A stretch of 64,000 bases of DNA from Alphaproteobacteria bacterium (GCA_002722515.1 PBMH01000047.1:2671-66670), one strand, 5' to 3'. Counted from the first letter of the stretch, positions 29,991 to 46,173 are shown. Numbers and translations: made by a program. Notes: generated from the sequence alone by a model not told the origin.

Positions 29991-30099
29991 CCTCCGATTA
30001 TGGCACCACCGTAACTCCGCGCACGGGAATTGCCCTACATGCTGCAATCGGGCATATCAGAGCATTTATACGATTTGCCTCCAACAGAGATTTCCTATC

Positions 30100-30525
30100 A
30101 TGCCTGACTTTGAAGCACGCAATCTGACCGAGGGACTGAACGGCTTCCTTGGCTTCCGACTGATTGACTGGCGCGATGGGATAGCGCAGATCTCCGTCAA
30201 CATCGCCGATAAACATCGCAACCGCCAAGGCGGCATACATGGAGGTGTCACCGCATCACTGATCGACGCTGCGACAGGCTTCTGCGGGGTCTATGAGCCA
30301 GACCCTGAGAAGCGCCGCGGTAACGTCACCGTGTCTCTTAACGTCAACTTTGTAGGCAGAGCCAAGGGCAGCACCCTGACTTGTAAAGCCAAGGTCATCC
30401 GCGCGGGACGGCGTCTTTATTTCGCGTCGGGTGAGGTACATGATGAACATAGCAACCTCATCGCATCCGCCGAGGCGGTCTACGCCTATGTAGACCGAGA
30501 CGCTCAACGGCGCGCAGTGTCTTAG
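30100..30525 (+). CDS. PaaI-family hotdog-fold thioesterase
   Basis: 'GGIHGGVTASLIDAATGF' is the PaaI/YbgC-like signature. I prefer the ATG at 30100 over the ORF-track start, which lies inside the antisense aminotransferase. Confidence 0.75.
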   Translation: MPDFEARNLTEGLNGFLGFRLIDWRDGIAQISVNIADKHRNRQGGIHGGVTASLIDAATGFCGVYEPDPEKRRGNVTVSLNVNFVGRAKGSTLTCKAKVIRAGRRLYFASGEVHDEHSNLIASAEAVYAYVDRDAQRRAVS

Positions 30526-30940
30526 GGTTGTTCAACTTATCCACTCCAGCACCCACTTCGATGCGAGCTAGGTAATCCGTCGCCACATCTTTTGCTATCG
30601 TAGCGCGCTGCTTGACTAGTACCACTCCACGCATTTGATCTAAGCGAAGCTCGAGACGGCACAGAATGATAACCCTATGCCCGGGTTTTTCGATCTTCAG
30701 GACGGCATCCGCTGCCTGCCAGGCAAAAAACAAACTAAACGACGCCCGTCATAACTTGACACATTGGCGTGCGCAAACCATCGTTCCCTCGTTCGTGACG
30801 CTGGGGTGCCTTGAAATCAAGGCTGAGAAGAAACCCAATCACCTGATCCGGATCATGCCGGCGGAGGGAGTTGTCACGGGTCGTCTCCAGCAGACGCTCC
30901 AGCCGCCACAACATCTGGTTCATTACTTCGGAGGCTATAC

Positions 30941-32086
30941 ATGTCAGTCAACGCGTGCCGCTTCACCACCGCCGCAGTGATCACCGCAATACTTCTGCTG
31001 ACCGACTTACAGTCGCCGAGCGTGGCCGAGCCACCGCGCATCCCAGTCTTAGTGCCTATCACCGGCTTTCTATCGCTAGAGGGGACAAGCCAGCGTAACG
31101 GCGCCGCGCTAGCACTAGAAGGGTCCGGCATCGCACTCGAGGTTGATGACACCGCCACCTCGCCGGAGGTCGCAATCAATGCCTTCGAACGCACCATAAC
31201 CTCCGGCCGCGCACGCGATGATATAGTCGCGATCGTAGCGCCCATGCTCGGCACTCAAATGCTGGCGCTCGTGCCTCTGGCTGACGAATTCGCCGTACCC
31301 ATGATCACGATCTCAGGTACTGCCCGGATCACCGAGTTAGGTAGCCCCAACGTTTTCCGCTTTTTTCCCGGCGACGCAGTCGTTAAGGCGGCCCATGCCC
31401 GTTATGCAGTTAAAGAGCTGGGTGTGACACGGCCCGCCGTGCTCTTCCAAACTACTGCGTATGGCCAAAGCGGGCGCACCGAGCTTGACCGCAACCTAAC
31501 TGGGCTAAACGCACCACCTGTCCTTAGCGAGGGCCTAGATGTGTCGGTCAAGGATATGCTGCCCATACTATCAAAAGTCCGGGAAACGCGAGCCGACGCA
31601 CTACTACTTCATCTTCACGCCGGGCCGTCGGCCCTCGTCATCCGACAGGCCCGTGCGATGGGGCTGGATATCCCCATCGTTGCAGGATCAGCGATGCACC
31701 AGCCCGAGACAGCGGCATTGCTCGAACCGTCGGAGCTGGCTGGCGTATGTGCCGAATCAGGTGCCTCGCCGATCTCGGAATCGGACCCAGCCATGCGCGC
31801 ATTTGTGGAGCACTACCGCGATACCTTCGATCGCGAGCCCGATGCATTCGCACTAGCCCAGTATGATGGGGTGAAGATGCTACTCGCTGCAATCGGGAGC
31901 GGCGCCCACGATGCCGCAGCCATCCGCGACTATCTCAAAACCAATAGCTATAATGGCTTAGCTATGCGCTACGAATCCGACGGAAAGGGCAACATGGCCC
32001 ATTCTGCGGTGATTCTCTGCTACGATGGCAATGGACGGGTACCGGCCATCGTCAAGCGGTACAACAACATCACGGGCGCACTCTAG
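30941..32086 (+). CDS. ABC transporter substrate-binding protein, LivJ/LivK (Peripla_BP_6) type
   Basis: It has a signal peptide, a 'PVLVPITGFLSLEGTSQRNGAALA' start typical of branched-chain/amide binding proteins, and is followed by livHMGF-type genes. Confidence 0.75.
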   Translation: MSVNACRFTTAAVITAILLLTDLQSPSVAEPPRIPVLVPITGFLSLEGTSQRNGAALALEGSGIALEVDDTATSPEVAINAFERTITSGRARDDIVAIVAPMLGTQMLALVPLADEFAVPMITISGTARITELGSPNVFRFFPGDAVVKAAHARYAVKELGVTRPAVLFQTTAYGQSGRTELDRNLTGLNAPPVLSEGLDVSVKDMLPILSKVRETRADALLLHLHAGPSALVIRQARAMGLDIPIVAGSAMHQPETAALLEPSELAGVCAESGASPISESDPAMRAFVEHYRDTFDREPDAFALAQYDGVKMLLAAIGSGAHDAAAIRDYLKTNSYNGLAMRYESDGKGNMAHSAVILCYDGNGRVPAIVKRYNNITGAL

Positions 32087-32096
32087 CCCCACGCTT

Positions 32097-32987
32097 ATGC
32101 TCGTAGCCCAACTCGCCCTAAATGCCGTCGCGCTTGGTGCAGCCTACGCGCTAGTTGCAATCGGCTTCGTCCTCGTCCTGAATGCCACTACTGCGGTTAA
32201 CTTCGCGCATGGCGAGAGCGTTGTAGCCGGCGGTTTTATTGCCGTCGCGCTTACTGGCGTGGCATCGGGGATTTGGCCGAGTAGCCTGCCAGGAATTATT
32301 TTCCTACCCGGCGTACTGCTCCTCACCGCACTCCTCGGGCTGGCCATCGCCAGCCTGGCCTACCTCCCCATCCGCAACAAACCTCCGGTCTCGGTATTCG
32401 TCACCACGATCGCTTTTGGCATCATTGTCACTAACGGTCTCAATGCCGGCTTCGGAGCAGCACCACGCACCGTACCCGCCTTGCTTGGAAGCGGCACAGT
32501 CGAGATATTTGGCATCACCGCCAGCAGACAGTCTCTCGCGATCATCGCGACGGCGACATTGCTAATTGGTATGCTCGCCATCCTCCTGCAACGTACGCAG
32601 CTCGGTCGCAAGTTCCGCGCGAGCGCGCAAGACCCCGAAATGGCTCGCGCGCTCGGTATCCGGCTGACTCGGATCACCCTGCTCGGCTTTGCTCTGGGTA
32701 CGGCCTTTGCCGGGGCAGCCGGGCTGTTGCTCGCCCACCAGTTCTTCATCACACCATTCGACGGTGTAGGCCTAATCCTCAAGGCCTATGTCGCCGTCGT
32801 CATCGGCGGCTGGGGTAGCCTGCGGGGTGCAACCCTTGGGGCCATGCTGATCGCGACCTTCGAGGTCGCCGTCGCGTCGGTTTCGTCCCAATCGCTAGCT
32901 GAGGGCCTGCTCTACATTGCGGTTCTACTAGTCTTACTAATACGACCGGAGGGCATTTTCGGCGAAACCCAAAGGCTGCGAGCATGA
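32097..32987 (+). CDS. livH: Branched-chain amino acid ABC transporter permease (LivH type)
   Basis: 'LNAVALGAAYALVAIGFVLVLNATTAVNFAHGE' is the canonical LivH N-terminus. The ATG at 32097 lies just after the SBP stop. Confidence 0.8.
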   Translation: MLVAQLALNAVALGAAYALVAIGFVLVLNATTAVNFAHGESVVAGGFIAVALTGVASGIWPSSLPGIIFLPGVLLLTALLGLAIASLAYLPIRNKPPVSVFVTTIAFGIIVTNGLNAGFGAAPRTVPALLGSGTVEIFGITASRQSLAIIATATLLIGMLAILLQRTQLGRKFRASAQDPEMARALGIRLTRITLLGFALGTAFAGAAGLLLAHQFFITPFDGVGLILKAYVAVVIGGWGSLRGATLGAMLIATFEVAVASVSSQSLAEGLLYIAVLLVLLIRPEGIFGETQRLRA

Positions 32988-34690
32988 GTCCCGATCGAAC
33001 TGAGTTGATCCAAAGGCAATCGCCATTGCTGGCCGGCGGCGGCGCACTAGTCGTCTACGCAATGTTCATCGCATCTTCCTATGATCAGAGATTGCTCACC
33101 ATTTCCGGAATCTATGTGATCATGGTGCTCGGCTATCAGTTTATCTTCGGCCATGCTGGCGCGCTCAGCCTTGCCCAAGGTGCTTTCTTCGGGGTTGGCG
33201 CCTACGTTACGGGCATCCTCGGCAGTCAGCTCGGCGCGGGCTTCCTTGCCACCTTCCCCGCGTCAATCGCCATAGCTGCGGGGCTCGCTCTTATCGTCGG
33301 CATCCCCGTCCTGCGCCTCGCCTCGCACTATTTCGCGCTGGCCACCCTGGCCCTCAGCCAGCTACTCCTGCTACTCGCAATTAATTGGGAGCCCGTAACA
33401 GGCGGCGCCAACGGACTACCCGGAGTTCCTCCCATACAAATCGGTGACTTGAGGATTGACCGCGGCGTGCCTCAGCTCGCCTTCGTCTGGGGCCTAGCAG
33501 GCGTAGCCATCCTCATCGCCAGCCGACAGCTCAGACCGATACGTGTGGCGATGTTCACGGTGATGCGCGAATCCCCGCTCGCTGTGCCCGCTTTCGGGAT
33601 CGACGCTGGACTTCTGCGCCTGCGTGCCTTCCTACTTTCCGCAGCCTTCGGGGGAGCGGCTGGAGCGCTATTCGTCCACACGAACCGGGTAGTCTCACCG
33701 GAGACCCTCGGCTTCGGAACCATGGTTACCTGCCTGACCATGACAGTAGTAGGCGGACGCTTCCGAATTTCGGGTGCCATCATTGGTGCGCTACTGCTAA
33801 CCCATCTACCCGAATGGTTTAGGGGTTTTGATGAGTATTACCTGGTCATGGTTGGCGTTTTGCTGCTGGCCATGGTCATATTCGTCCCCGACGGGCTCGC
33901 ATCCTTCCTCAAGGACAGCTCGTGGGCCGGACAAATCCGTACCCGTGCGCGCCCTGCCGAGCCAACGGACGTGTTAGATGCCGCCAAGCCCACACTGAAT
34001 ATTACAAATGTTTCAAAACGGTATGGTGGAATCCAGGCGCTCGACCGGGTAGGCATGAGCATCGAGACCGGAGAAATCGTGGGACTGATTGGCCCCAACG
34101 GAGCCGGAAAGACCACGCTTGCCAACATCATTACCGGTATCGACAGGGCTGATAGTGGCAGCTCGAAGTCTGCGCATATCGATCTGGCCGCAGCCACTCC
34201 GACGGCGATCGCCCGAAACGGAATCGCCCGCACCTTTCAGACGCCCCAACTGCCCAACGAGTTGACGGTCCGCACCGCCATCGAGGTCGCTGCCGCAAAC
34301 AACGGTGGGCATTGCCTGACAGATACGGTCATCACTAGTTGCCAACTAATTAACATCCTTGACGCGCCGTGTGGAACCTTGCCCCATGGCGTCCGCCGCC
34401 GGGTGGAAATCGCCCGGGCGCTAGCCGGCCAGCCTCACCTATTGATTCTCGACGAGCCGGCAGCGGGCCTGGCTCCGGACGAACAGACGGTGGTGGCAGA
34501 AATTCTTCGTGCACACGCTGCCAAAGGTCTCGCAATCCTCGTGATTGATCACAACATCGACTTCCTACAGCCGCTGGCCACGCGTCTAGCCTGCCTGGAC
34601 AGCGGGCGGCTGATCGCCGACGGATCCGTCGCAGATGTGCTCGCTGACGACGCAGTGCTGACGGCCTATTTTGGAATTTTAAGGCAATGA
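32984..34690 (+). CDS. Fused LivM-type permease / LivG-type ATP-binding protein
   Basis: The N-terminal roughly 320 aa is polytopic (LivM-like 'GHAGALSLAQGAFFGVGAY'). The C-terminal half is an ABC ATPase with Walker A 'GPNGAGKTT' and Walker B 'LLILDEPAAG'. Confidence 0.8.
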   Translation: MSPDRTELIQRQSPLLAGGGALVVYAMFIASSYDQRLLTISGIYVIMVLGYQFIFGHAGALSLAQGAFFGVGAYVTGILGSQLGAGFLATFPASIAIAAGLALIVGIPVLRLASHYFALATLALSQLLLLLAINWEPVTGGANGLPGVPPIQIGDLRIDRGVPQLAFVWGLAGVAILIASRQLRPIRVAMFTVMRESPLAVPAFGIDAGLLRLRAFLLSAAFGGAAGALFVHTNRVVSPETLGFGTMVTCLTMTVVGGRFRISGAIIGALLLTHLPEWFRGFDEYYLVMVGVLLLAMVIFVPDGLASFLKDSSWAGQIRTRARPAEPTDVLDAAKPTLNITNVSKRYGGIQALDRVGMSIETGEIVGLIGPNGAGKTTLANIITGIDRADSGSSKSAHIDLAAATPTAIARNGIARTFQTPQLPNELTVRTAIEVAAANNGGHCLTDTVITSCQLINILDAPCGTLPHGVRRRVEIARALAGQPHLLILDEPAAGLAPDEQTVVAEILRAHAAKGLAILVIDHNIDFLQPLATRLACLDSGRLIADGSVADVLADDAVLTAYFGILRQ

Positions 34691-35346
34691 GTTCTGCGTT
34701 GCATGTAAGCGGTCTTACCGTGCGCCACGGCTCCGTAGTTGCGGTGCGCGATGCCACTCTCATAGCACCGACTGGCGGGATTACTAGCGTTGTTGGCGCT
34801 AACGGTGCGGGCAAGTCGAGCCTGCTTCGCGCCATCGTCGGGCTTACAACAACCGAGGGGACCATTCACCTAGGCGATCGCGATATAACGCGGCTCTCCA
34901 TCGAGGCGCGTATTCATTCAGGAATCGCCTATGTACCCGAAGGCCGGCGCGTTTTTCCAGGCATGACGGTGGCGGAGAATCTTCTGGTTGCCGGCCCCTC
35001 TGGCAGGCGGGTACGCAGTGCTCGCCTCGATGCCGCCTTCGATCTGTTTCCCCAGCTGGCGGCACGGATGACACATCATGCATGGCAACTTTCGGGGGGA
35101 CAGCAGCAAATGTTAGCCATCGGTCGCGCCCTAATGGCAAGCCCCGCCGTTTACCTTCTCGATGAACCTACACTGGGCCTCGCACCGACAGTGGTCGATG
35201 ACGTCGCGAACAGCCTGATTCGTCTAGCTGATTCAGGCGCTACAATCCTGATGGCAGAACAGAACGCCGGCTTTGCTGCACGTGTATCGAGAAATTTGGT
35301 GACGATACGAACCGGACGAATTCAATCGGCACCCGTCGAGAACTAA
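34687..35346 (+). CDS. livF: Branched-chain amino acid ABC transporter ATP-binding protein (LivF type)
   Basis: Walker A 'GANGAGKSS', signature 'LSGGQQQMLAIGRAL' and Walker B 'YLLDEPTLGLAP'. It overlaps the upstream gene by 4 nt. Confidence 0.85.
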   Translation: MSSALHVSGLTVRHGSVVAVRDATLIAPTGGITSVVGANGAGKSSLLRAIVGLTTTEGTIHLGDRDITRLSIEARIHSGIAYVPEGRRVFPGMTVAENLLVAGPSGRRVRSARLDAAFDLFPQLAARMTHHAWQLSGGQQQMLAIGRALMASPAVYLLDEPTLGLAPTVVDDVANSLIRLADSGATILMAEQNAGFAARVSRNLVTIRTGRIQSAPVEN

Positions 35347-35351
35347 ACCGG

Positions 35352-35906
35352 TTAAGAACAGCGTGCCTGACCCAACCAGCTATCACTGCGTCTTGCGCTC
35401 GACCACACTGTCACCGTCACATCAAACTTAGGATCAAAAAGGTCACGCCACGCACAAGCCACCTCTCGTGCTATCGTGTGCACCAGATAAGCATCGACCC
35501 CGTACTCGAGAACGATTGAAACCTGGTCGTCCGCCTCGACAGACACCTCGGAGAGATCACCGCGCTGCGAAACCCATTCGAGAAAGGCATTCTCGGCGTC
35601 ACCGAAGGTCGGCGCCATAAAATCCTTCGGCAGCCGAACGAAAAACCGGTGCACCCAGCCTGTTCTATCACTTCCATCAAAATCGCGGACATGAACCCAG
35701 CGGCCATCCTCATCGAAGGCACGCACCTTACTCCCGCGCTTTAGCTTACCAACAATCGGATGTTCTTCGCCCGGACCAGAACGCACGTTAAGAACCCGCA
35801 CATATACGGACGCTTCCCAGCTGCGCCGGGCCTCATTAGACACACCCGCACCACCCGCCAACAGCGGGACCGCGCAAAGAAACATGGCACATAAATATTT
35901 GTACAT
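35352..35906 (-). CDS. Secreted SH3-domain (SH3_3, bacterial) protein
   Basis: Signal peptide 'MYKYLCAMFLCAVPLLAGG' and 'VLNVRSGPGEEHPIVGKLKRGSKVRAFDEDGRWVHV', a bacterial SH3 pattern. Confidence 0.6.
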   Translation of the reverse strand: MYKYLCAMFLCAVPLLAGGAGVSNEARRSWEASVYVRVLNVRSGPGEEHPIVGKLKRGSKVRAFDEDGRWVHVRDFDGSDRTGWVHRFFVRLPKDFMAPTFGDAENAFLEWVSQRGDLSEVSVEADDQVSIVLEYGVDAYLVHTIAREVACAWRDLFDPKFDVTVTVWSSARRSDSWLGQARCS

Positions 35907-36330
35907 ATCCGGGTCCGTCTCCAGCAGACTGCCGGCGAGTCCCGAATGCACGGGCGTCATTTAAAAAGCGCCGACGCCTCGACCGACGTGCCGGAAACTA
36001 TGATTATGACACGGCCAACGAGTATCACATAATACACACGCAGAATCTATAAATTCGACACCTCCCGGTCTGGAGTTTGGGTATTTATACACGTCCGTCG
36101 GAAATGAAACGGAAAGGCCTATTTCAGCCTCACCGGGTAGCCTGTGATGCGTCTAATACGGGACCGCGCAACGTCAGGACAGACGAGGTCTTTGCGACCC
36201 TCTCGCCGAATTATCTGAAGACGCCCCCTATAGCAATCAAAGTCACGACTCACGTGAACCCGTTACCTTTGGCGCGGACACGGTACGCTTGAGCTAATTA
36301 TTGGTAACCAGAACTGAACGGGGAACGAAC

Positions 36331-37017
36331 ATGGCACGTCCAGACAAAATGCAGCATGCTGGCCAGGCGGCTGTCGACGCGGCGCGCGACACGGCGCATC
36401 ATCTACTAAATATTGGTGCAGTAAACTTCCGCCCGGAAGATCCCTACACATTCACATCGGGGCGGGTTAGCCCGAGTTATATCGACTGCCGCCATGTTAT
36501 CGCCTTCCCTTTAGCACGAGAGGCCATGACCGCACACGCGGTGGAACTAATCGACCGCGAGATCGGCCGCGATAATATCGATGTGATCGCGGGCGGTGAG
36601 ACGGCCGGCATCCCCTACGCTTCCTTCGTCGCAGTAGCGCTCGGAAAGCCTATGGTCTATGTCCGCAAGGAACCGAAGGGTTTTGGCCGAATGGCGCAGA
36701 TCGAGGGTGCCCTCGACGATGAGGCCCGTGTGCTGCTCGTGGAGGACCTCACCACAGACGGGGGTAGCAAGGTCCGGTTTATTGAAGCATTGCGCGCCGC
36801 AAGCGCACGGGTCGAGCACACCTACGTTGTCTTCCATTACGGGATTTTCACCGAGAGCCAAGCGACCATGGATGAACTCGGCGTCGAATTACACGCGCTA
36901 GCCACATGGTGGGATGTGCTCGATGCTGCCCGCGAGCAGAAAGCCTTCTCGGTTGAGCAACTCGATAGCGTCGAGTCCTATCTGCACGATCCCGATGGCT
37001 GGAAACCCATGGCATAA
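36331..37017 (+). CDS. pyrE: Orotate phosphoribosyltransferase
   Basis: 'FTSGRVSPSYIDCR' and the PRPP motif 'VLLVEDLTTDGGS'. I chose the ATG at 36331. Confidence 0.9.
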   Translation: MARPDKMQHAGQAAVDAARDTAHHLLNIGAVNFRPEDPYTFTSGRVSPSYIDCRHVIAFPLAREAMTAHAVELIDREIGRDNIDVIAGGETAGIPYASFVAVALGKPMVYVRKEPKGFGRMAQIEGALDDEARVLLVEDLTTDGGSKVRFIEALRAASARVEHTYVVFHYGIFTESQATMDELGVELHALATWWDVLDAAREQKAFSVEQLDSVESYLHDPDGWKPMA

Positions 37018-37061: not shown

Positions 37062-38015
37062 TCATCGGGGCAACGCTACGAAAGTGCCGTTGTTCCGCCG
37101 CGTGACCTCACGCATCAATGTTTCGAACCGACCTTTGGTCTGCAGCGAAATAAACCCGATCGCATGGACACGAGCCTTAGGCTCGCCGGTGATCCGGTTT
37201 TTGTTGAGCCGAGACAAAGTGTTGATCACCGGGTCATAGGATGACCCAGTGTAATCGTCACCGAAGATGTAGATAGAGACCTTCTCGTTTGCCTTCACAT
37301 AGCGCTTGAGCGCAACCTCTAACCCCTCGACCGGGCTCGAGTTGGATGCACTCGTCCACGACCGAAATACGTGAATTGCCCGATCGCGCGCGCCAGCAGT
37401 GTCCGGGATCCAGCGCCCACGATAACCGCTGATCAGATGGAAACCATTGTCGTTTAGCATCTGGAATCCTTTGATACGCGGATGGATACGGATGATTTTC
37501 TCGATCTCGCGGGTAACCCGGTCCCAAATGGACTGCATACTGCCCGAGGTGTCGACAACGAAGACGACATATTCGCTATCTACCGGAATGCCACCGACCT
37601 CACTATCGCGCGCAGCCGCCAAGGGTGCCGTGACCCCGGCGCGAGCTTGTTTCCGGAGCGCACGCTCCACGTTCCTCAGCCCCTCGACATCACGCGCGCG
37701 CTGTGCGGATTCGTTGCTCGCGGCCGTCAGCGCCCGTTCTGCCGCGTCGACCGACACGTCCTCTGCCCTGAGCCTAGCTCGGGCCTCCTCAAGGCGCACA
37801 GTTTCGCGCGCCAAAGCTACTTCCAATTGCTCGATACGCGCCTCGGTACCAATCAGACTTTGCAGAAGAGATGGAACCTCGTCAGCGCCCCCCGCTTCAT
37901 CCGATATTCCGAAGGGCGAGATCAGGACAAGCAGCACGATTGCTCCAAAACCGCAGGAGATGATATCGAGAAAGGAGAGGTTGAAAATCTCGAACTCAGA
38001 GCGTTTTCGCCTCAT
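37062..38015 (-). CDS. ExbD/TolR-like TM anchor + coiled coil + vWA (MIDAS) domain protein, paralogue 1 (system gene G)
   Basis: N-terminus 'MRRKRSEFEIFNLSFLDIISCGFGAIVLLVLI', then an A/E/R/L-rich helical region. The vWA domain has 'VVFVVDTSGSM' (DxSxS), 'IYIFGDD' and the C-terminal 'NNGTFVALP'. Confidence 0.75.
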   Translation of the reverse strand: MRRKRSEFEIFNLSFLDIISCGFGAIVLLVLISPFGISDEAGGADEVPSLLQSLIGTEARIEQLEVALARETVRLEEARARLRAEDVSVDAAERALTAASNESAQRARDVEGLRNVERALRKQARAGVTAPLAAARDSEVGGIPVDSEYVVFVVDTSGSMQSIWDRVTREIEKIIRIHPRIKGFQMLNDNGFHLISGYRGRWIPDTAGARDRAIHVFRSWTSASNSSPVEGLEVALKRYVKANEKVSIYIFGDDYTGSSYDPVINTLSRLNKNRITGEPKARVHAIGFISLQTKGRFETLMREVTRRNNGTFVALPR

Positions 38016-38028
38016 CGCAATATTCCGA

Positions 38029-39033
38029 TCATGGCCAGCTCCCGGCGGGACTGATCAGAATACCACCTGTTTCTGATGTCCACTTCCAGAACTCGTGCGA
38101 TGCCTGAGGGTCGCCCTCGATGGGTAGCAGAACCACGTTGACTCGCGCCGTTCCCAACCCAGTATTTCCGATCGTATGGCGAAGCAAACGAACCCGGCAA
38201 GCACCGGATATGGACGTCGCCCCACCCCATAACGCGCTGCAGTTGGAGAAGGGATTTAAGCTCCGGTAAACGCTATTACCCGCCGTCGGCAACCCGTCTG
38301 TGATCACATAGATATCAGTCGGCTGGAACGCGACCAGTGCAGCCAACCCCGCAGCCAAGTTCGTCGGGCCGCTAGGAACGACCGCATCGAGATCAGCCAG
38401 CACCCGGCCGAGACCAGTGGCATCATCACCGCGGACCACGTTGCCGAGGGGCCGGGCCTTGTCGCTAAACGCCACCACCCGTATTTCAGAGCGTTGGGGA
38501 ACGCGGGCGAGGAACCAGTTAACCACGCGCCGGGTCCGCACCCATTTGGGGCCTACCTGTTTGGCCGCAGAACCCATATTTTTGCGGCGGATCACGTCGA
38601 TCAAAAGCTCGTCAGTCATAGACGCGCTGGAATCCACCAGTACACCGATCCGCGTACCCTCGACCCGCAGCCCGACGATATAATTCTCGCTACTCGTAGG
38701 CACCGTTTTGATCACGTCGGGGTCCAGGGGAGCCTCAATCGCCGTGATGACCTGCTCCAGCGCATGGGCCACACGACCGCTGGCTGCAAGATTTTGGCGC
38801 TCCTGGTCAACCAAAGTCTTTAATCGCAAAAGTTCCGCGGCACGTGCGTCGAATTTCTCGGAGGTAATAGTATTTGCCTGCAAAACTGCCGTAATCTTTG
38901 CGTTCAGGTCGGCCTCGGTAGCTTCCATCCGAGTTAGATCCTCTCGCAGCCGGTCGCTCTCGACGGAGACGCTTTCGGTGTCAAGCTTCACCAGCATCAG
39001 CACAAGAATAATCGCCCCCAGCCCGCAGGACAT
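38029..39033 (-). CDS. ExbD/TolR-like TM anchor + coiled coil + vWA (MIDAS) domain protein, paralogue 2 (system gene F). The ATG at 39033 is the minimal ORF; the conserved frame extends to about 39084.
   Basis: 'MSCGLGAIILVLMLV', a helical region, then a vWA domain with 'GVLVDSSASM' (DxSxS) and 'IYVITDGLPT'. In-frame upstream codons read 'RRRRTPQGFNLAFLDI', matching the paralogue 1 N-terminus. Confidence 0.75.
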   Translation of the reverse strand: MSCGLGAIILVLMLVKLDTESVSVESDRLREDLTRMEATEADLNAKITAVLQANTITSEKFDARAAELLRLKTLVDQERQNLAASGRVAHALEQVITAIEAPLDPDVIKTVPTSSENYIVGLRVEGTRIGVLVDSSASMTDELLIDVIRRKNMGSAAKQVGPKWVRTRRVVNWFLARVPQRSEIRVVAFSDKARPLGNVVRGDDATGLGRVLADLDAVVPSGPTNLAAGLAALVAFQPTDIYVITDGLPTAGNSVYRSLNPFSNCSALWGGATSISGACRVRLLRHTIGNTGLGTARVNVVLLPIEGDPQASHEFWKWTSETGGILISPAGSWP

Positions 39034-39080
39034 GATGTCAAGGAAGGCAAGATTAAACCCCTGAGGTGTGCGCCGCCGCC

Positions 39081-39857
39081 TCAGTTCGAACCTGCTTTCG
39101 GGTCTCTAATCACACCGATTCGATTGAGCAGGAAGGATTCGCAATATTCCTGAGTGTCGACCAGCACCCCATCCTGCAGCCGCTGCAGCTGGTGTAGCAG
39201 AAACATCAGGACGATACTGATCAGGAGGGCAACGAAGGTGGAGTTGAAGGCCACCCCAAGGCTCTCAGTCATGCCAGATATATCACCCGCAAGCGCTTGG
39301 TCGGCTTGGGATAGCGCCTCGCCTATGCCACGCACAGTGCCGATGAAGCCGATCGCCGGGATCGCCCAGATCAGGTAGCGGATCAGAGAATTCTCGGCCT
39401 CCTGCTTCTGTGCTAGCGCATCTACACTCGCCTCGATTGTCTCAGACGTGCTGTGCACGTCGCCAGTGATTAAGAAGCGCCGCAGGCTCGCGGTCAGGGT
39501 ACGAAGTAGGTGCGCCCTACGAATTTTGTTCGGCAATGCCTCCAGAGTAGCCAAGGTCGCGGTCATGTCTTTGCCCTCGGCTCCATCAAGGAGATCGACA
39601 TTGAACAGATAACGCTCCCTCAGGAGCGCCAAACTTTTCTCAAAGATAAGGTATAGCCCCCAGAACATCAGGATGATCGAGATCTCCTGTTCCCAGTCCT
39701 TAAGGATTACCACTATGTTACGCGGCGCGCTCTGAGCAGCCGCTCGGGAAGCTTCGATCAGCGCAGTCGATTCCGGCCAGACATAGCCAACATAAAAAAT
39801 GTGCACAACGATGATCGAGACGATCAACGCGAGGGCATTCTTGGCGGCTTCAGGCAT
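39081..39857 (-). CDS. MotA/TolQ/ExbB-family proton channel protein (system gene E)
   Basis: 258 aa with three or more TM segments. The C-terminal 'WAIPAIGFIGTVRGIGEAL ... GVAFNSTFVALLISIVLMFL' matches the MotA_ExbB channel core pattern. Confidence 0.8.
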   Translation of the reverse strand: MPEAAKNALALIVSIIVVHIFYVGYVWPESTALIEASRAAAQSAPRNIVVILKDWEQEISIILMFWGLYLIFEKSLALLRERYLFNVDLLDGAEGKDMTATLATLEALPNKIRRAHLLRTLTASLRRFLITGDVHSTSETIEASVDALAQKQEAENSLIRYLIWAIPAIGFIGTVRGIGEALSQADQALAGDISGMTESLGVAFNSTFVALLISIVLMFLLHQLQRLQDGVLVDTQEYCESFLLNRIGVIRDPKAGSN

Positions 39858-39885: not shown

Positions 39886-40059
39886 CTAAATGTCGACCGG
39901 GAAGGAGACGGGAGAATTCAGGCTTAGTGAGATTGAGGACTGAGCATAAGCGACCCCGAGAACTCCCAATGCTGCAGCGAGGGCCACGAATATTACCAGC
40001 GCGCGACGGCCGCGAGGCGACCAATTATTTAATTCTCTATTCTGGCGTGATTTCGCCAT
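39886..40059 (-). CDS. Small (57 aa) signal-peptide/TM protein, not listed as its own ORF in the track (system small ORF)
   Basis: 'MAKSRQNRELNNWSPRGRRALVIFVALAAALGVLGVAYAQSSISLSLNSPVSFPVDI'. The ATG at 40059 is preceded by GGGAGA at 7-nt spacing. The ORF fills the only sizeable gap in the operon, and its basic-hydrophobic-AxA pattern is signal-peptide-like. Confidence 0.5.
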   Translation of the reverse strand: MAKSRQNRELNNWSPRGRRALVIFVALAAALGVLGVAYAQSSISLSLNSPVSFPVDI

Positions 40060-42079
40060 GCAGATATCTCCCGATTCTGAAACCAACATCGTCGCGCTCG
40101 TTAGATACTCCGTCTCGGTAGGCTGCACGTAGCGTCGACCGGTTGCCCGACCGCCAACTCGATCCTCGTACCACATGAGAATCGCCAAAGGCGGGACCGA
40201 GCGGATCACGCACAACAACACCCTTCGCCGGCGGCTTCAACGAATACCAGTCATGGACCCACTCGCTGACATTTCCTGTTAGGTCGAAAAGACCCGATGC
40301 CTCAGCCGCAAAACGCCCGACCGGAGCAATCCGTGCATATCCGTCATTGTAGTTGGGGACGAAACTACGGACTAAGCCGTTGGCGGATTCATCCGCAATA
40401 TTGCCCGTGCCGAGCTGCACCGTCGCCACGTTACCCCACGGGAAGATGGTGCGAACCGGACGTCCAGCCTTTCGGGCGAGCCATTCCCATTCGGCCTCAC
40501 TCAACAGCCGGTAGCCGTCTGCGCGCGGGTTGATCCCGCGCATCCGACCACCTGCAAGATCATAAAAGGGCACGAGCCCTTCTTTTGTGCTCAACCAATT
40601 GGCGAATGTCGCAGCATCTTGCCAACTTACCCCGCTCACAGCGTGGTCCGGAGGGCCTCCGCGACCACCTCGAAACAACGCCACCTGTCCGTTGGTCGTC
40701 TCATGCTTTGCGGCATAGAACGGACGTGTCAACCAAACATGACGCTCGAACTCGTTAGCCCGCTGGCCAATCTCGTGGCGCGGTGCACCCATGACGAATT
40801 TATCGTTGGGCTCGAACAGCACGAGCTCCATACCTATGCTGTTGGTGTAGACGCGCGGGGCCTCGGCGAGCAGGACCGTCGCCTCGGGAAGCAACGTCTC
40901 ACGAATTGCCAACGGACGGGTAGACGACGGCACCACGTTCCGGATGATTTCTCTATAGCCGTCCCGGCGTAATTCGATCTTTACGGGTACCGCAGGCAGC
41001 TCGAGTGTTGCGCTTCCTTTGCCCTGCAGTCTGTTATCTACATAAATCTCCGCCGCCGGATCAGTCACAATCTCAACCAACCCAAGGTCCACAGCAAGCC
41101 CCAGTCTTATAGTTCTCACCTCGTCTGGATGGAGCTGCACCGTCAGGGTTTTACCCTTATAACCATCAAGCAGATACACGATCGTGTGGTCCGTTGAGGC
41201 GCTAACCTGATAAGCTTTTTCCGGGTCCACCCGGCGTCCATCAACCAGCAATTCACCACCCGACGGCGCAACATCAAACTGCAGCGTCGCCGCGAAGGGC
41301 AGCAGTCGATAATCGCGCGCCACATTCGGCTGATCGTTGGTGATCCGAACCACATCCCCCAATGTTTTCCGGCCCGGCGCAGTGACCGTAACACTATATT
41401 CACCACCATCTAGACTACGGTTGAGTGGCGTAGTTCCGGCATCCACACCTGCGATCTTTACCGCTGCGCCAGCCGGTTGTGAGACGACCGTCAGTTGCCC
41501 AACGACCGGCGTCAACGCAATCGCGACCTCGGTCGTTTCGCCCCGAACCAGTTCAACCGTCCGGCTGACCGGGATGAAAAACGGATGGTCAACCGTCACG
41601 TCGTGTGAGCCAGCTTGACCCTTCACATCGAGCATCGGGCCGACCATGATACGTCGTCCGTCGAACGACCAGCGGCTGTCATCACGTGGCGGCAGTGTCC
41701 TCGCAAGAACCCGACCGGGCAGCGGCATGAGAGTCACAGTGACCCGCCGCCCTCTTTCCTCGGGCAAAATGGTACGTCGGATCTCCTTAAACCCCGGTGC
41801 CGAGATCCGCAGCAACGGTGTCCGGGAGATGGTGTATACCGCGTCGCCTACTGTCACACCGATGCCCTCCGCGAGCACTATCTTGCTCGCCGGTTCGGCC
41901 TCGGGCGGTAGTATCGTCACTCGGATCGCATTGGTCGAGGGAAGAACCAACGCGACAGCCGCTACCGCCACCAACAAAACGACCAAAGCGATGATATAAA
42001 GCCGCACTTGGCGTGCGCGCGCGGTGCGCAGACCTTTCTCAAACTCAAGCTCGGGCTCAAATTCGTTCATTTGGAACAA
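40037..42079 (-). CDS. TM-anchored PEGA-repeat protein with a C-terminal FGE-sulfatase (SUMF1/EgtB/PvdO-type) domain (system gene D)
   Basis: TM helix 'LYIIALVVLLVAVAAVALVL' and four or five PEGA-like beta-sandwich repeats (for example 'LTVVSQPAGAAVKIAGVDAGTTPL...GEYSVTVTAPG'). The C-terminal domain shows 'GVSWQDAATFANWLS...GYRLLSEAEWEW...TGNVSEWVHDWY...VVRGSSW...DVGFRIGR'. An alternative start is the ATG at 42070. Confidence 0.8.
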   Translation of the reverse strand: MFQMNEFEPELEFEKGLRTARARQVRLYIIALVVLLVAVAAVALVLPSTNAIRVTILPPEAEPASKIVLAEGIGVTVGDAVYTISRTPLLRISAPGFKEIRRTILPEERGRRVTVTLMPLPGRVLARTLPPRDDSRWSFDGRRIMVGPMLDVKGQAGSHDVTVDHPFFIPVSRTVELVRGETTEVAIALTPVVGQLTVVSQPAGAAVKIAGVDAGTTPLNRSLDGGEYSVTVTAPGRKTLGDVVRITNDQPNVARDYRLLPFAATLQFDVAPSGGELLVDGRRVDPEKAYQVSASTDHTIVYLLDGYKGKTLTVQLHPDEVRTIRLGLAVDLGLVEIVTDPAAEIYVDNRLQGKGSATLELPAVPVKIELRRDGYREIIRNVVPSSTRPLAIRETLLPEATVLLAEAPRVYTNSIGMELVLFEPNDKFVMGAPRHEIGQRANEFERHVWLTRPFYAAKHETTNGQVALFRGGRGGPPDHAVSGVSWQDAATFANWLSTKEGLVPFYDLAGGRMRGINPRADGYRLLSEAEWEWLARKAGRPVRTIFPWGNVATVQLGTGNIADESANGLVRSFVPNYNDGYARIAPVGRFAAEASGLFDLTGNVSEWVHDWYSLKPPAKGVVVRDPLGPAFGDSHVVRGSSWRSGNRSTLRAAYRDGVSNERDDVGFRIGRYLHGEITPE

Positions 42080-43556
42080 TCTCCAGTACCAAGTCTGTCC
42101 GCCCCGGGGCGATGTCGATACGGATCAAAATCGCCTGAAACCCTGCACGAATACCCTCAAATGTGTAACGCCCCGGTCGTAACTCGATGGTCCTGTCGGT
42201 CACAAAGCCAACAATGCCCACCCCGCGCACGGTGATGTTAGTCACTCCATCCGACAAGATCCGTACCGGAACTTTAACGGCATAAGCTTTCACAAGGGTC
42301 GCAAGTTCATCGGCCCGGGCCGCAAGGCGCGGACTAAACTCGCGATACTCGGCAACCGCTGATACAATTGCGCTAGCATCTTTGGAAACCGCTGCGGAGG
42401 CTAGCCGTTCGGGCGCGGCCAGGTGCCGGCCGGTGCGCGCATCGAGACCATTTATCGACTGAGCACGGGCCAGTTCGTCAGCAATCATACGTCCAGCCGG
42501 GGTAAGGCGCCGGGCCTTCACATATGCCTGTTCCGCTGCACGCCAATCATCAACCTGCGCAGCCGCACGCGCGGTTTCGATCAGTCGCTCGATCATCAGT
42601 TCGACCTGTAATGCTGCAATCTTTTCGTCCAATACACCTATCTCGGTGCGACCGGCATAGATAGCGCGAGCCGCCGCCAAGCTGCGCCGGGCCGCCACAA
42701 GATCGCGCCCGTCCACTCGTTTCAGGCCATCCGCGATATGCCGGGTAAACTTCTCCTCACCAATCAGGCGGCGTACCTCATCCGCTCTCTGCACCAATCC
42801 CATCCGCGCGGGATCGATATTGAGGGCCTCCGCGAGATGACTTGCCTCGGCGGTGAGGTTGTTCTCGACCCGTGCAACGGCGGCCGCCGCAATTTTCTTT
42901 AGAAGCGCTGGTAACGCATCGATACGTATCTTTAAGGCTGCCGCAGGTTTGGATTCGGGCCGTAGGTCGAGGGCGCGGTCAATTGCCAGCGAGGCACTGT
43001 CATAATTATCCTCCGCGAAAGCTGCGTCCGCCGCTGCGAACGCATCACCAAACGCCCTATCGCGCTCGGCCAAAACCGTCTCGGCATCCTCTCGCACAGC
43101 CGCAAGTGCGGTTGTCGCTTCGCTATAGGATCCCGAGCTAAACAGGAAGATCGCCTGATCCTTAGCATCAAGAATCCTGAGCTGGGAAACGGGATCCCAG
43201 CTAGCGAAATTATTATGGACTATGCGCGGTTCTATCTCCGCCTGAAAAGCGGCTAGACCGACCTTAAATACCGCACGAGCCGATTCTTTCGTAGCAGTAT
43301 TGGTGAGGTTCTGCACAGAAACCAACGGATCAGGGATGACCGGTGGCACGGGCGTCAAACCCATTATAGGAGTTTTTGGCGTCTTGGACATGCCTTCCGC
43401 CACGGGCATGGAATCCGGCCGGAGGAACTCGCGAATAACAAGGATCCCAGTATAGGCCAATACCAGAACCGCCAAACCCAAGGCTATGCCAATTGTGAGC
43501 TGCAAACGGCGGTGTCGAACCGCTCGGCCTTCCTGTTCTAACTTGTCTTTCAGCAT
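42057..43556 (-). CDS. TM-anchored helical-repeat (TPR-like) protein with a C-terminal PEGA-like beta-sandwich (system gene C)
   Basis: TM helix 'LTIGIALGLAVLVLAYTGILVI' and an Ala-rich helical region with TPR-like units ('DNYDSASLAIDRALDLRP', 'DDWRAAEQAYVKARRLTP'). The C-terminus reads 'VPVRILSDGVTNITVRGVG...LRPGRYTFEGIRAGF'. Confidence 0.6.
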   Translation of the reverse strand: MLKDKLEQEGRAVRHRRLQLTIGIALGLAVLVLAYTGILVIREFLRPDSMPVAEGMSKTPKTPIMGLTPVPPVIPDPLVSVQNLTNTATKESARAVFKVGLAAFQAEIEPRIVHNNFASWDPVSQLRILDAKDQAIFLFSSGSYSEATTALAAVREDAETVLAERDRAFGDAFAAADAAFAEDNYDSASLAIDRALDLRPESKPAAALKIRIDALPALLKKIAAAAVARVENNLTAEASHLAEALNIDPARMGLVQRADEVRRLIGEEKFTRHIADGLKRVDGRDLVAARRSLAAARAIYAGRTEIGVLDEKIAALQVELMIERLIETARAAAQVDDWRAAEQAYVKARRLTPAGRMIADELARAQSINGLDARTGRHLAAPERLASAAVSKDASAIVSAVAEYREFSPRLAARADELATLVKAYAVKVPVRILSDGVTNITVRGVGIVGFVTDRTIELRPGRYTFEGIRAGFQAILIRIDIAPGRTDLVLEIVPNERI

Positions 43557-43570: not shown

Positions 43571-44809
43571 CTAGAGCTTGACGTTAGGGGTACGTTCTTC
43601 CTCGAAGACTCTTTGCAGGAAGGCTCGCCACTGTGCGAACTGCTCCTTGGCTGTACCGGTTAACTCGACGGTCTTCTCTTCAAACGCCACCACCCGTGGC
43701 GCAAGATCGATGTCGATCGACTGACCAAGCTCCTCAAGCGCTTCGCGATGGACTTCAGCTTCCTTGCTAGTTTGGAAGCTATTCGACAGCAGGGTCGCAC
43801 CGACCGTGCCAGCAACCACGCCGCCAGTCAGGCCAGCAGTCTGTCCAGCATACGAACCCGAATTAGCTCCAGCAATAATAGCCAACACACCCAAGCCGAT
43901 TGTTAATGCACCGAGAACTGCCTCACCGACAGCCTCCTCATTGGCCTCCCGGCGTGCTTCAACTTCCAATAGGCTCTGTTCCTGCCAAATCAGGTAGCTG
44001 TCCTGCATCTCAACGCTGAACGCTCGGTAGTGCTCCTGCAAACCGTCCACGAACAACTGATCTCGTACCCGAACAGCCCTTGTGCGCTCCAGCATCGGAT
44101 CGCTATCACTGGGAAAGCTCAACAGAGAGACCGTATTTCGTCCCGCCTTGAGATGCTCCGCGAACGCCTCCTCGGTGAAGTTTGAGCCGAACCGCAGTTC
44201 AGTTAGACGGCTCAAATTGTTCAGCTCGGCGATCGAATAATCATCCAACTCTAGGGCCACGCGGTTTGCAGCCTCCTCGAACACCGGGTCATAGGGGTCC
44301 ACCCCCTCATTGCGCGTGTTCTTGTGAAATCCTGATGACACCGAGTGATCGAAATCACGAACGAACCAGCGCGTGCCGGAAATATCGGTAACTTCGATCC
44401 TAATCTCGACGTCCCCGCCGTTAGATTCGAGTATCTCTCCCTCCACATACAAGTCGCCTGTGGCGCTGGCATCCGGGGTCACACGCACCGCCCCGAAGGC
44501 ACCGGTCTTCTCCAGCGCCTCCTTAAGCTTAAGCGCGAAACGGTTCGCCTCGGCCCGGCGCAACTCCGGCCAGACGCCCTCTTCCTCATAGCTTTGCCCT
44601 GCATCCGAGAGACCGGGATCAAACACGGGCACGACCACATCCAGGCGCGGCTTCGCCGGATCAACCCGCGCCTTACCCTTGGGGTCGAAAAGGGACGATA
44701 ACTGCGGTCCGACGCTCGGGCCGGGCCCGGTTCCGTTCGTCACGCAGCCCGTCAGTATGAAGCAGGCGCAAAGAGTATAGACGCCGATCTTGCGAAGTAA
44801 CGATTGCAT
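43571..44809 (-). CDS. Lipoprotein with a C-terminal glycine-zipper segment (system gene B)
   Basis: Lipobox 'ILTGC' at residues 18-22 and the Gly-zipper 'GALTIGLGVLAIIAGANSGSYAGQTAGLTGGVVAGTVGA'. I recognise no catalytic motif. Confidence 0.6.
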   Translation of the reverse strand: MQSLLRKIGVYTLCACFILTGCVTNGTGPGPSVGPQLSSLFDPKGKARVDPAKPRLDVVVPVFDPGLSDAGQSYEEEGVWPELRRAEANRFALKLKEALEKTGAFGAVRVTPDASATGDLYVEGEILESNGGDVEIRIEVTDISGTRWFVRDFDHSVSSGFHKNTRNEGVDPYDPVFEEAANRVALELDDYSIAELNNLSRLTELRFGSNFTEEAFAEHLKAGRNTVSLLSFPSDSDPMLERTRAVRVRDQLFVDGLQEHYRAFSVEMQDSYLIWQEQSLLEVEARREANEEAVGEAVLGALTIGLGVLAIIAGANSGSYAGQTAGLTGGVVAGTVGATLLSNSFQTSKEAEVHREALEELGQSIDIDLAPRVVAFEEKTVELTGTAKEQFAQWRAFLQRVFEEERTPNVKL

Positions 44810-44830: not shown

Positions 44831-45616
44831 CTAGTTTGATATAGGTAGTCCCTTATAGCGACGATACTCGTCCCACAGGCGTTTTTTAAGCTCCAGATCA
44901 GTCTCTTCCATGGCCGCCTTACGTATCTGCATCTCCAGCGCGCTGTCATTATCAGCAGATGGAATATCCTCCGGCAGCTTGCCGTTGTCCTGAGTACGCA
45001 TGGCCTTGAGCTCGGGTTCATCGCCCGGTAGCTGGTCAGCCTCAACCGTGCTACCCGGTGTCGTGTTATCCACGCCTTCCGTGAGCTCCCCGCTGGCTTC
45101 CGTATTCGCCGGCGTCGACGCCATGACAGCGGCTTCATCACCCGATATATCGCCGGTCACCGCAGAATCACCTACCTGTGGGCCTTCCGCCTCCAGTTCA
45201 CTGGAGCCCGAGATATCGCCCGCCGCGGTCGAAGTCTGGCTGCCGTCGTGCTCAGCGCTATCCGCCGTGCCCGAGATACCGGATACACCACGACCGTTAT
45301 GATCCAAACCGCCACCAGTCAAACTAGCGCCTGTCGCGGCACCTAACCGTTGGGTTTGGCATTCCTCGAACCGGCTCAGGGAGTACTGAAAAGCGCGGTC
45401 CATCCGCGCAATCCGTTCCGCGCGAGTTAGGCCCGGCTCGTCAACATAGTCGACGGAGATCTCAGTACAGTCATGGGAGAGTCCGCCCGGACCGCGGTTC
45501 ACCGCTTCGGACCATGGGGAATCCGCCTGCGACCAAACAGGCGTAACACCTATGGTCAATAGGCATAACAGAGCCAGCAGAATCTTGAGTTGTCCGGACT
45601 TAGACCCAATTGTCAT
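44831..45616 (-). CDS. Secreted protein with a long acidic Ser/Gly/Thr/Glu/Asp-rich low-complexity centre (system gene A)
   Basis: Signal peptide 'LKILLALLCLLTIGVTPVWS', a short Cys-containing folded N-terminal region, an acidic low-complexity stretch with repeated 'GDISG', and the C-terminal helix 'LELKKRLWDEYRRYKG'. Confidence 0.55.
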   Translation of the reverse strand: MTIGSKSGQLKILLALLCLLTIGVTPVWSQADSPWSEAVNRGPGGLSHDCTEISVDYVDEPGLTRAERIARMDRAFQYSLSRFEECQTQRLGAATGASLTGGGLDHNGRGVSGISGTADSAEHDGSQTSTAAGDISGSSELEAEGPQVGDSAVTGDISGDEAAVMASTPANTEASGELTEGVDNTTPGSTVEADQLPGDEPELKAMRTQDNGKLPEDIPSADNDSALEMQIRKAAMEETDLELKKRLWDEYRRYKGLPISN

Positions 45617-45836: not shown

Positions 45837-46064
45837 TTGCGGAAGGGGGTGATTCCTATCGTCCAGGTCGTAGTTCGTGACAACAATGTCGACCAGGCGC
45901 TGAAGGCGCTAAAAAAGAAAATGCAGCGCGAAGGCGTATTTCGCGAGATGAAGCTGCGGCGCTCCTATGAGAAGCCGTCGGAAAAACGCGCCCGCGAAAA
46001 GGCGGAAGCAGTTCGTCGGGCTCGGAAGCTCGCGCGCAAACGTAAGGAACGCGACGGGTTTTGA
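45837..46064 (+). CDS. rpsU: 30S ribosomal protein S21
   Basis: '[56 protein letters not shown]' is canonical S21. The start is uncertain: TTG 45837, GTG 45849, or closer to the 'QVVVRD' core. Confidence 0.9.
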
Positions 46065-46100
46065 TCCCTAGCTAACACCCCTCCTGTATTTAGGAGACAC

Positions 46101-46133
46101 AAAAACGCACGACCCAACGGGTCGTGCGTTTTG
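46101..46133. terminator. Bidirectional rho-independent terminator between convergent rpsU and pntB
   Basis: A 10-bp perfect stem acgcacgacc/ggtcgtgcgt (46105..46114 / 46120..46129) with a 5-nt loop. It is flanked by AAAAA on the left and TTTT on the right. Confidence 0.8.
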
Positions 46134-46173
46134 CATTTCACTGTCGTGAGCAAGCGCACGCTCGGCATAGGCT

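Follow-up and report, generated by a model that had tools for sequence, protein, structure and literature searches.

A tolQ-like gene beside an unlike pair of vWA proteins with a near-invariant membrane aspartate: a candidate ion-driven motor in an alphaproteobacterial operon

Motors of the MotA/ExbB/TolQ type are the only known route by which Gram-negative bacteria pass the energy of the inner membrane on to the periplasm and outer membrane, and we know of no characterized member of this family that works without an inner partner. The known motor classes drive swimming, nutrient import, envelope division, gliding and secretion, and phage defense. In some systems (AglR-AglQ-AglS of Myxococcus gliding, and those with ExbD1 and ExbD2), one MotA/TolQ-like protein is combined with two different TolR/ExbD-like partners, which are thought to form a heterodimer. 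Here, we describe a locus in a 64,000-nucleotide stretch of DNA from an Alphaproteobacteria bacterium (GCA_002722515.1, PBMH01000047.1:2671-66670; hereafter the window, with positions counted from its first letter). In it, a MotA/ExbB/TolQ-family gene, E, is directly followed by two genes, F and G, each encoding a single N-terminal membrane helix with a buried Asp, a long helical stalk, and a vWA domain (Table 1). We consider it likely, though well short of certain, that the three products assemble into a MotA/ExbB/TolQ-class motor that sits in the membrane and is driven by ions, with F and G as its inner pair.

The same motor proposal has been made, from genome analysis only, for the “TPH-vWA” proteins (Mol Biol Evol 2025;42:msaf138; PMC12204202), and this paper was all that turned up in a literature search on the operon or on experimental work. 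In that account, TPH-vWA proteins tightly co-occur with tolQ homologs, tolR/exbD are absent, and there is no SHLS motif. A conserved Asp lies in a TolR/ExbD-like trans-pore helix, the proteins mostly form unlike pairs, they occur in Proteobacteria and Verrucomicrobia, and AlphaFold 3 complexes put the Asp pair within a ring of conserved Thr residues (PMC12204202). The locus described here shares with them the vWA domain on one N-terminal inner-membrane helix, the unlike pair beside a tolQ-like gene, the conserved helix Asp, the conserved channel Thr residues, the lack of tolR/exbD/motB nearby and of an SHLS motif, and a distribution that is mainly proteobacterial but extends to Verrucomicrobia. 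Because every descriptive feature of the paper that we tested was found here as well, we regard the E-F-G locus, judged by its sequences, as a further member of this TPH-vWA/tolQ-like kind.

The product of gene E matches the Pfam model MotA_ExbB (PF01618) with an E value of 1.4e-13 (51.2 bits, against a cut-off of 22.9), and its hydropathy shows four hydrophobic segments. An alignment of 68 E homologs is closer to Escherichia coli TolQ/ExbB (hhalign probability 88%) than to E. coli MotA (2.7%). In it, T174 falls on TolQ T145 and T207 on TolQ T178 (ExbB T148 and T181), which are the pore-lining threonines of the last two helices. Conservation reaches at least 95% for both of these residues as well as for IPxIGFIGTVRGIG and LGVAFNST, and the Pro-Gly motif known from TolQ/ExbB is likewise kept in E. 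E is the only MotA/ExbB/TolQ-family gene in the window. Relatives of ExbD, TolR, or MotB were found neither in the window (E value ≤ 10) nor among 6,926 open reading frames (ORFs) lying within 10 kilobases of the gene in 80 related loci from other genomes, which leaves E without a conventional inner partner. By analogy with the known motors, E is presumed to be the proton-channel subunit, that is, the pentameric part of the motor. Of the related loci, 65 have enough upstream flank to be informative for synteny, and E, F, and G stand in this order in 64 of them. A MotA/ExbB/TolQ-family gene thus stands directly upstream of F and G, with no other partner gene.

In F and G alike, no segment is as well conserved as the membrane helix. 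The helix of G has a mean column conservation of 0.74, whereas its vWA domain has 0.52 and its stalk 0.26; the helix of F (0.93 versus 0.69) likewise ranks above all other segments. Among database homologs that cover the N terminus, 233 of 234 G-type sequences and all 59 F-type sequences carry the helix Asp, and both partners have it in all 53 F/G gene pairs from other genomes. Across 84 diverse G homologs (28–55% identity to G), D17, C21, and A25 are invariant, and conservation exceeds 90% at F15, L16, G24, and further positions; in F, all 47 homologs examined have D16, C20, G21, L22, and G23. The Asp, Cys, and Ala, at i, i+4, and i+8, lie on one face of the helix. A signal peptide or an inert anchor in the membrane is not conserved in this way. 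Counted from the last charged residue on the cytoplasmic side, the Asp comes eight residues later, a spacing shared with E. coli ExbD (E9 to D17 in G, D17 to D25 in ExbD). The N terminus (in G it begins MRRKRSEFEIFNLSFLDIISCGFGAIVLLVLI, as the initial annotation had quoted it) is basic and the segment after the helix is acidic, which indicates a predicted N-in, C-out topology. The membrane-embedded Asp noticed in the initial annotation is upheld: it is buried and near invariant, and the one N-terminal helix carries it close to its cytoplasmic end. It may also be mentioned that one helical turn past the Asp there is an invariant Cys (C21 of G, 37953–37955; C20 of F, 39025–39027), followed by G(F/L)GA.

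Relatives of G number more than 7,800 in a database clustered at 90% and fall into 963 clusters at 50% identity (E value ≤ 0.001). Proteins of the F/G family come from marine Alpha-, Gamma-, Zeta-, and Deltaproteobacteria, Acidobacteriota, and Verrucomicrobia, and are annotated in the database just as “VWA domain-containing” or “hypothetical.” The two proteins had been taken for paralogs, and the comparisons agree: BLASTP aligns F with G across the first 165 residues (E value 1e-10), and the profile–profile alignment (hhalign) runs over 244 columns, from the helix to the last Asp of the metal ion-dependent adhesion site (MIDAS), with a probability of 99.6% and an E value of 5.5e-25. On these alignments, F and G are true paralogs. 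Loci with both genes always have one F-type and one G-type gene, so the pair is an old one that has been maintained. This is also what would be expected of the heterodimer that the initial annotation had raised as a possibility.

AlphaFold 2 (AF2) models, built for G with the family alignment, place the parts as follows. G (mean predicted local distance difference test score, pLDDT, of 89) has a helix at residues 11–32, a short unstructured acidic segment, a second, continuous helix at 46–126, a low-confidence linker, and then an alpha/beta domain at 149–317; F (pLDDT 78) has a helix at 15–115, a linker, and an alpha/beta domain at 145–351. Family-wide hydrophobicity along the stalk repeats with a period of 3.45 residues in G (a power reached by 0 of 1000 shuffles) and 3.50 in F (3 of 1000). 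Both periodicities are sustained over ~80 residues, as is characteristic of a coiled coil and not of a single amphipathic helix. For the heads, Foldseek against PDB pairs the G domain with the vWA domain of ANTXR2/CMG2 (1.8e-7, TMt up to 0.69) and the F domain with the VWA domain of CLCA1 (2.6e-7, TMt 0.74). The Pfam model VWA_2 gives 26.1 bits on F, below its cut-off of 27, and is recorded for most homologs. The MIDAS motifs are DTSGS (residues 155–159) and GDD (252–254) in G, and DSSAS (151–155) and TDG (262–264) in F. D155, S157, S159, S226, and D253 are invariant in the 84 G homologs, as are D151, S153, S155, T241, and D263 in the 47 F homologs, with S226 of G aligned to T241 of F in the profile–profile comparison. 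Sequence and model together confirm, for both proteins, a vWA fold with a complete set of conserved MIDAS residues and hence a predicted metal site. An ExbD/TolR-type or OmpA-type domain has no real match in F or G in either Pfam or NCBIfam. The proteins are thus built as initially described, with a heptad-like helical segment leading to a vWA head that bears all the quoted MIDAS motifs and with neither of the usual periplasmic domains. In F only, two further cysteines (C282, 38209–38211; C296, 38167–38169) are invariant; they lie in an insert of the vWA domain, PF..CS.L.G....ISG.CR, that has no counterpart in G. They suggest a disulfide-stapled loop, and such cysteines would fit a periplasmic location of the domain.

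The Asp of F is only visible if the gene is read from an unusual start codon. A mechanical list of ORFs begins F at ATG 39033, in the middle of the hydrophobic helix. The frame is open from 39105, and upstream of that ATG it reads ...LRRRRTPQGFNLAFLDIMSCGLGAIILVLMLV, a stretch from which ATG, GTG, and TTG are all absent. The sole start-like codon is CTG at 39084, within a CTGA shared with the TGA stop of E, so that F and E overlap by 4 nucleotides; G begins 13 nucleotides after F. CTG is a legitimate but rare bacterial start codon. In related loci, the start position 11 codons before the LAFLD motif is occupied by ATG, GTG, or TTG, and in three close relatives (L002–L004) by CTG again. Full-length F homologs with a normal start codon are 352–356 residues long and begin MRRHRKSEGFNLAFLDIMSCGLGA, exactly at the position of CTG 39084. 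From these homologous starts and the recurrent CTG, we conclude by comparison that translation of F must begin at CTG 39084, which makes the gene 39084..38029 (351 residues). With this start, the pair spans exactly 37062–39084, as the initial annotation had it. A start at ATG 39033, the one that most gene calls in the database adopt, would deprive F of its Asp and leave G alone with an Asp-bearing helix; it would agree with the lack of a usual start codon upstream, and also with the many database homologs that are recorded as 334–337 residues starting MSCGLGA. However, the 17 codons ahead of that ATG encode the conserved RRRR..GFNLAFLDI, the shortened protein would retain just ~14 hydrophobic residues, homologs with ordinary start codons begin precisely at the CTG, and a CTG in a stop–start overlap with E is rare yet legitimate; we therefore find this start very improbable. 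The truncated F-type calls (these include database proteins P0270–P0300 and others) start at an internal Met and thereby lose the Asp together with half the helix.

That the F/G helix works like the helix of ExbD, TolR, and MotB is well supported by its context. We read it as a motor helix because of the genomic setting: E adjoins it, there is no other partner gene, synteny is kept, and the residues are conserved, as is the architecture of helix, stalk, and vWA domain in both proteins. In addition, a helix that is the most conserved segment of its protein should be more than a plain membrane anchor. Most likely, the Asp-bearing helices of F and G lie inside the proton channel made by E. In the motor that we propose, E would form the outer ring (a pentamer, by analogy with the solved 5:2 motors), and one F and one G would put their N-terminal helices side by side into its central pore, where D16 of F and D17 of G would face a ring of the E threonines T174 and T207. 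As protons flow, the two Asp residues would be protonated in alternation, and the ring would turn relative to the F/G pair. In the periplasm, the pair would continue as a parallel coiled-coil stalk of ~12 nm. Beyond it, a flexible linker would lead to two unlike vWA heads, and the MIDAS of these heads would hold an acidic residue of a partner. Candidate partners are the operon products D, C, B, and A, and the energy of the membrane would be delivered as a pull or a torque to a target that is either periplasmic or at the outer membrane. What we infer in this scheme is its stoichiometry, the pairing of F with G as a heterodimer, the rotation, the ligand, and the role in the cell. The initial annotation had called F and G stator plug subunits. 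As stator subunits they are supported, by context, as a functional model; “plug subunit” is a loose term, because no MotB-like plug was identified.

Several results weigh against the motor model, and the profile comparisons of the helix belong among them. Not one of 119 N-terminal fragments (~43 residues) of F/G homologs matches the Pfam ExbD model at E ≤ 10 (the same scan returned scattered small-membrane-protein families only), and the N-terminal profile has no match in PDB at E ≤ 10. The sole PF02472 match in the Pfam scan is spurious (E value 0.087, G residues 224–276). A hidden Markov model of ExbD made from 80 metagenomic relatives detects neither F nor G. These relatives came from a metagenome scan (a viral contig collection gave one ExbD fragment) with patterns that lay in the helix, so that the helix region is near invariant and makes a poor family-wide profile. 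Aligned by hhalign to the N terminus of ExbD, the N-terminal profile gives a weak match over 16 columns, with D17 on D25 (score 16.1, P = 0.002, probability 14%); 2 of 300 column shuffles reach 16.1, and the reversed-sequence control reaches 15.4. When single E. coli sequences of TolR, ExbD, and MotB are used instead, the top local alignment places Asp on Asp in each case (D23, D25, and D32, respectively), with P values of 0.03–0.05. The shared Asp register is weak evidence of homology, because the Asp is the sole strongly conserved polar column on both sides. Given that these alignments are in register but nonsignificant and that the reversed control is nearly equal, we did not count them as evidence of homology. 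Thus, where the initial annotation had read the helix as being of ExbD/TolR type, profile comparison with ExbD, TolR, and MotB gives no significant relationship and nothing beyond the weak Asp-on-Asp alignment. The test is weak in power because the segment is only ~22 residues long. As far as the sequences go, common descent of the F/G helix with those of ExbD, TolR, and MotB is unproven.

On the same side of the balance are exceptions to the conservation described above. In protein P0201, the sole such case among 293 N-termini, the helix Asp is replaced by Ser (MAFLSVITCCFGA). The one locus of 65 that departs from E-F-G synteny, L068, is from a Verrucomicrobia metagenome-assembled genome and has a lone G-type gene (9992–10993). 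This gene has an intact FLD..CGFGA helix, and stands among apparently unrelated secreted-protein genes, with no E- or F-like gene within 10 kilobases. In favor of the model, and of paired stalks, the distance from Asp to MIDAS in F rises and falls with that in G across 53 loci (r = 0.91). The correlation is mostly carried by two operon subtypes (~135/136 and ~154/142 residues in F/G) and is therefore confounded by phylogeny; in L025, both distances are shorter (122/119, by 13 and 19 residues), and intermediate cases agree. The published TPH-vWA family is known from genomes alone, its function being unknown and no deletion phenotypes having been reported (PMC12204202). Finally, the exemplar of that paper is an Idiomarina protein. 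Among the best 120 matches to a search seeded with Alteromonadales homologs, cultured Gammaproteobacteria were numerous and Idiomarina was absent.

Some of these points would suit a simpler explanation, namely that the N-terminal helices are ordinary anchors, as in BatA/BatB-type proteins, with an Asp that serves dimerization or some other non-ion role and with E as a mere neighbor. Such anchors would account for the profile comparisons without a significant link to ExbD, TolR, or MotB, and for the lone G-type gene without E. They would not account for the helix being the most conserved part of both proteins, for an invariant Asp, Cys, and small residues spaced at i, i+4, and i+8, or for the synteny of the three genes and the 4-nucleotide overlap of E and F, and they would leave E without the partner needed by every characterized member of its family; on balance, we find this explanation unlikely. 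It is also conceivable that F and G are force transducers in the style of TonB/TolA, their helices lying outside the E ring and the inner dimer being lent by a housekeeping ExbD/TolR encoded elsewhere. A separate membrane-tethered vWA family with that predicted behavior does exist (PMC12204202), and F and G are likewise built, in outline, from a helix, a long linker, and a globular head. However, that family has an SHLS motif with an essential His and stands beside tolR-like genes (PMC12204202), whereas the pattern S-x3-H-x6-L-x3-S occurs in the first 70 residues of 0 of 509 F/G homologs, and tolR, exbD, or motB is near E in none of the 80 loci. It is general knowledge that a near-invariant buried Asp marks the helix of an inner dimer and not that of TonB or TolA, and we therefore hold the transducer reading to be quite improbable.

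A relationship to anti-phage defense of the Zorya kind, with its MotAB-like complex acting as a sensor, might be suspected from weak matches of E to ZorA models (NCBIfam, 0.0083; PADLOC, 0.0022) and from the MotA/MotB-like 5:2 complex that, as is generally known, Zorya likewise has. These matches cover only the channel region that MotA and ExbB share, and are far under the cut-offs. The other six proteins of the operon match no PADLOC model, and neither Pfam nor NCBIfam scans show a nuclease or other effector domain. Moreover, the seven genes keep a fixed order across several phyla and lie, in this window, between housekeeping genes. We accordingly give the defense reading hardly any weight, and return to the motor with F and G as its inner pair.

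E, F, and G belong to a set of seven co-directional minus-strand genes, A-B-C-D-E-F-G, that runs from 45616 to 37062, with F and G last. The full order is found in 40 related loci, partial versions occur at contig ends, D is upstream of E in related loci, and A is present in 43 of them. The operon loci come from Alpha-, Zeta-, Gamma-, and Deltaproteobacteria and Acidobacteriota. In about half of the loci (32), an extra gene of ~430 codons stands between E and F (e.g., 7601–8896 in L066); its product matches nothing in Pfam and shows no clear membrane segment, and the operons that have it encode longer F stalks (~154 versus ~135 residues from Asp to MIDAS). A scan of the operon for promoter and terminator consensus sequences was uninformative.

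Table 1. Position and make-up of the seven operon genes and of the parts of F and G (coordinates in the window)
Feature	Coordinates	Strand	Description and basis
Gene A	44831..45616	minus	261 residues; signal-peptide-like N terminus, acidic low-complexity middle; first operon gene
Gene B	43571..44809	minus	412 residues; lipoprotein-like N terminus (…ILTGC); hydrophobic segment ~297–315
Gene C	42057..43556	minus	499 residues; membrane-anchored TPR protein; one N-terminal hydrophobic segment
Gene D	40037..42079	minus	680 residues; N-terminal membrane anchor, PEGA domains, C-terminal FGE-sulfatase-fold domain
Gene E	39081..39857	minus	258 residues; MotA/ExbB/TolQ-family subunit; T174 at 39336–39338, T207 at 39237–39239
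Gene F	38029..39084	minus	351 residues; Asp-bearing helix, stalk, and vWA domain; reading frame and homologous start positions
F transmembrane helix	38989..39057	minus	residues 10–32 (FNLAFLDIMSCGLGAIILVLMLV); Asp16 codon 39037–39039; translation check
F periplasmic helical stalk	38740..38988	minus	residues 33–115; AF2 continuous helix 15–115
F vWA domain	38032..38652	minus	residues 145–351; MIDAS D151-S153-S155 (38620–38634), T241, D263
Gene G	37062..38015	minus	317 residues; Asp-bearing helix, stalk, and vWA domain; ORF and database homologs
G transmembrane helix	37920..37985	minus	residues 11–32 (FNLSFLDIISCGFGAIVLLVLI); Asp17 codon 37965–37967; translation check, AF2 helix 11–32
G periplasmic helical stalk	37638..37880	minus	residues 46–126 (81 residues, ~12 nm if straight); AF2 single helix, pLDDT >90
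G vWA domain	37065..37571	minus	residues 149–317; MIDAS D155-S157-S159 (37539–37553), S226, D253

Among the other operon products, D has Pfam matches to PEGA (1.8e-24) and to the FGE-sulfatase domain (1.1e-29), the latter being the fold of formylglycine-generating enzymes (FGE). Against PDB, FGE (2.6e-10) and PorK (3.3e-8) are matched with similar strength, and the GldK model is hit at 3.7e-16 (59 bits), far under its cut-off of 350 bits. We considered D as a specific relative of PorK/GldK and rejected this, as true FGE enzymes match D at least as well. The last ~100 residues of D (40037–40340) contain zero cysteines. The two catalytic cysteines of true FGE enzymes presumably lie in this C-terminal part of the fold, and, because it is free of Cys, D is probably noncatalytic, like PorK/GldK or PvdO. 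In C, the TPR_2 model is weak, but it is above the cut-off in homologs from L008 and L066. Neither A nor B matched a Pfam family. Judged by eye from translations, the operon is followed (28800–37017) by a convergent orotate-phosphoribosyltransferase-like gene and a cluster for a branched-chain amino-acid ABC transporter, and is preceded (45837–49308) by a divergent gene for ribosomal protein S21 and NAD(P) transhydrogenase-like genes. The G+C content is flat across the region (0.54–0.61), which does not suggest a mobile island.

The operon as a whole invites a bolder and more tentative proposal, to which we would give somewhat less than an even chance: A–G might be one complete proton-driven trans-envelope machine. 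The 5:2 motors, with their flagellar, Ton/Tol, gliding/type IX, and Zorya classes, would thereby gain a further functional class. Its axle would be a heterodimeric coiled coil with two different metal-dependent vWA heads that grip an operon partner (A, or D as a possible PorK-like periplasmic assembly). If the model holds, a vWA adhesion head on a long stalk would give such a motor a novel type of output device, and A–D are concrete candidates for what the motor pulls on. The system should be testable, given that carriers are in culture (Pseudoalteromonas denitrificans, Opacimonas viscosa, Sneathiella, and Thalassotalea). It is important to note that, because truncated F-type entries are without the key Asp, automated surveys will under-detect the F/G pair.

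Set beside ExbD/TolR (PF02472), F and G are alike in the single helix, predicted to be N-in, in an Asp equally far from the cytoplasmic boundary, and in a gene position directly after an ExbB/TolQ-like gene; the helix alignments keep the Asp in register but are weak. They differ in having a ~12-nm coiled coil and a vWA domain instead of the ExbD/TolR periplasmic domain, in giving no significant PF02472 match, and in the helix motif itself, which is FLD(I/V)xxCG(F/L)GA in F and G and (T/V)P(F/L)(I/L)DV(M/L)LVLL in ExbD/TolR; the Asp-Cys-G(F/L)GA motif is without a parallel in ExbD, TolR, or MotB. With MotB/PomB, F and G would have in common an Asp-bearing helix within a MotA-family ring (for F and G, as proposed), and E and MotA both have four hydrophobic segments. 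Unlike MotB/PomB, F and G show no OmpA-like peptidoglycan-binding domain (Pfam, NCBIfam) and no identifiable plug, there are no flagellar genes nearby, and E is nearer in sequence to TolQ/ExbB than to MotA, by the hhalign values given above. In AglR-AglQ-AglS and the ExbD1/ExbD2 systems, the partners keep short TolR/ExbD-type periplasmic parts and are not known to have a coiled-coil stalk or a vWA head.

The GldLM/PorLM motors with PorK/GldK are alike in being of 5:2 type, in having an inner dimer that reaches far into the periplasm, and in being encoded with a protein of FGE-sulfatase fold. GldM and PorM are not known to have an Asp helix or a vWA domain. Because D matches FGE enzymes at least as well and its GldK score is below the cut-off, the resemblance is one of layout, not of family. 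Zorya (ZorAB) differs in that only a weak match of E to the ZorA channel region is seen here, with no effectors of the ZorC–E type. The SHLS-type vWA transducers share the membrane helix, the long linker, the vWA head, and the company of a motor gene and a TPR gene (here C), and differ in their SHLS/His motif and in standing beside tolQ and two tolR-like genes (PMC12204202), whereas F and G have the Asp and no tolR-like neighbors. For the TPH-vWA proteins, the text of the same paper contains no occurrence of PEGA, sulfatase, GldK, or PorK and does not mention partners A–D. What the present locus adds to that account is the CTG start of F, the gene calls that lose the Asp, the conserved A–G operon, and the co-variation of stalk length between F and G.

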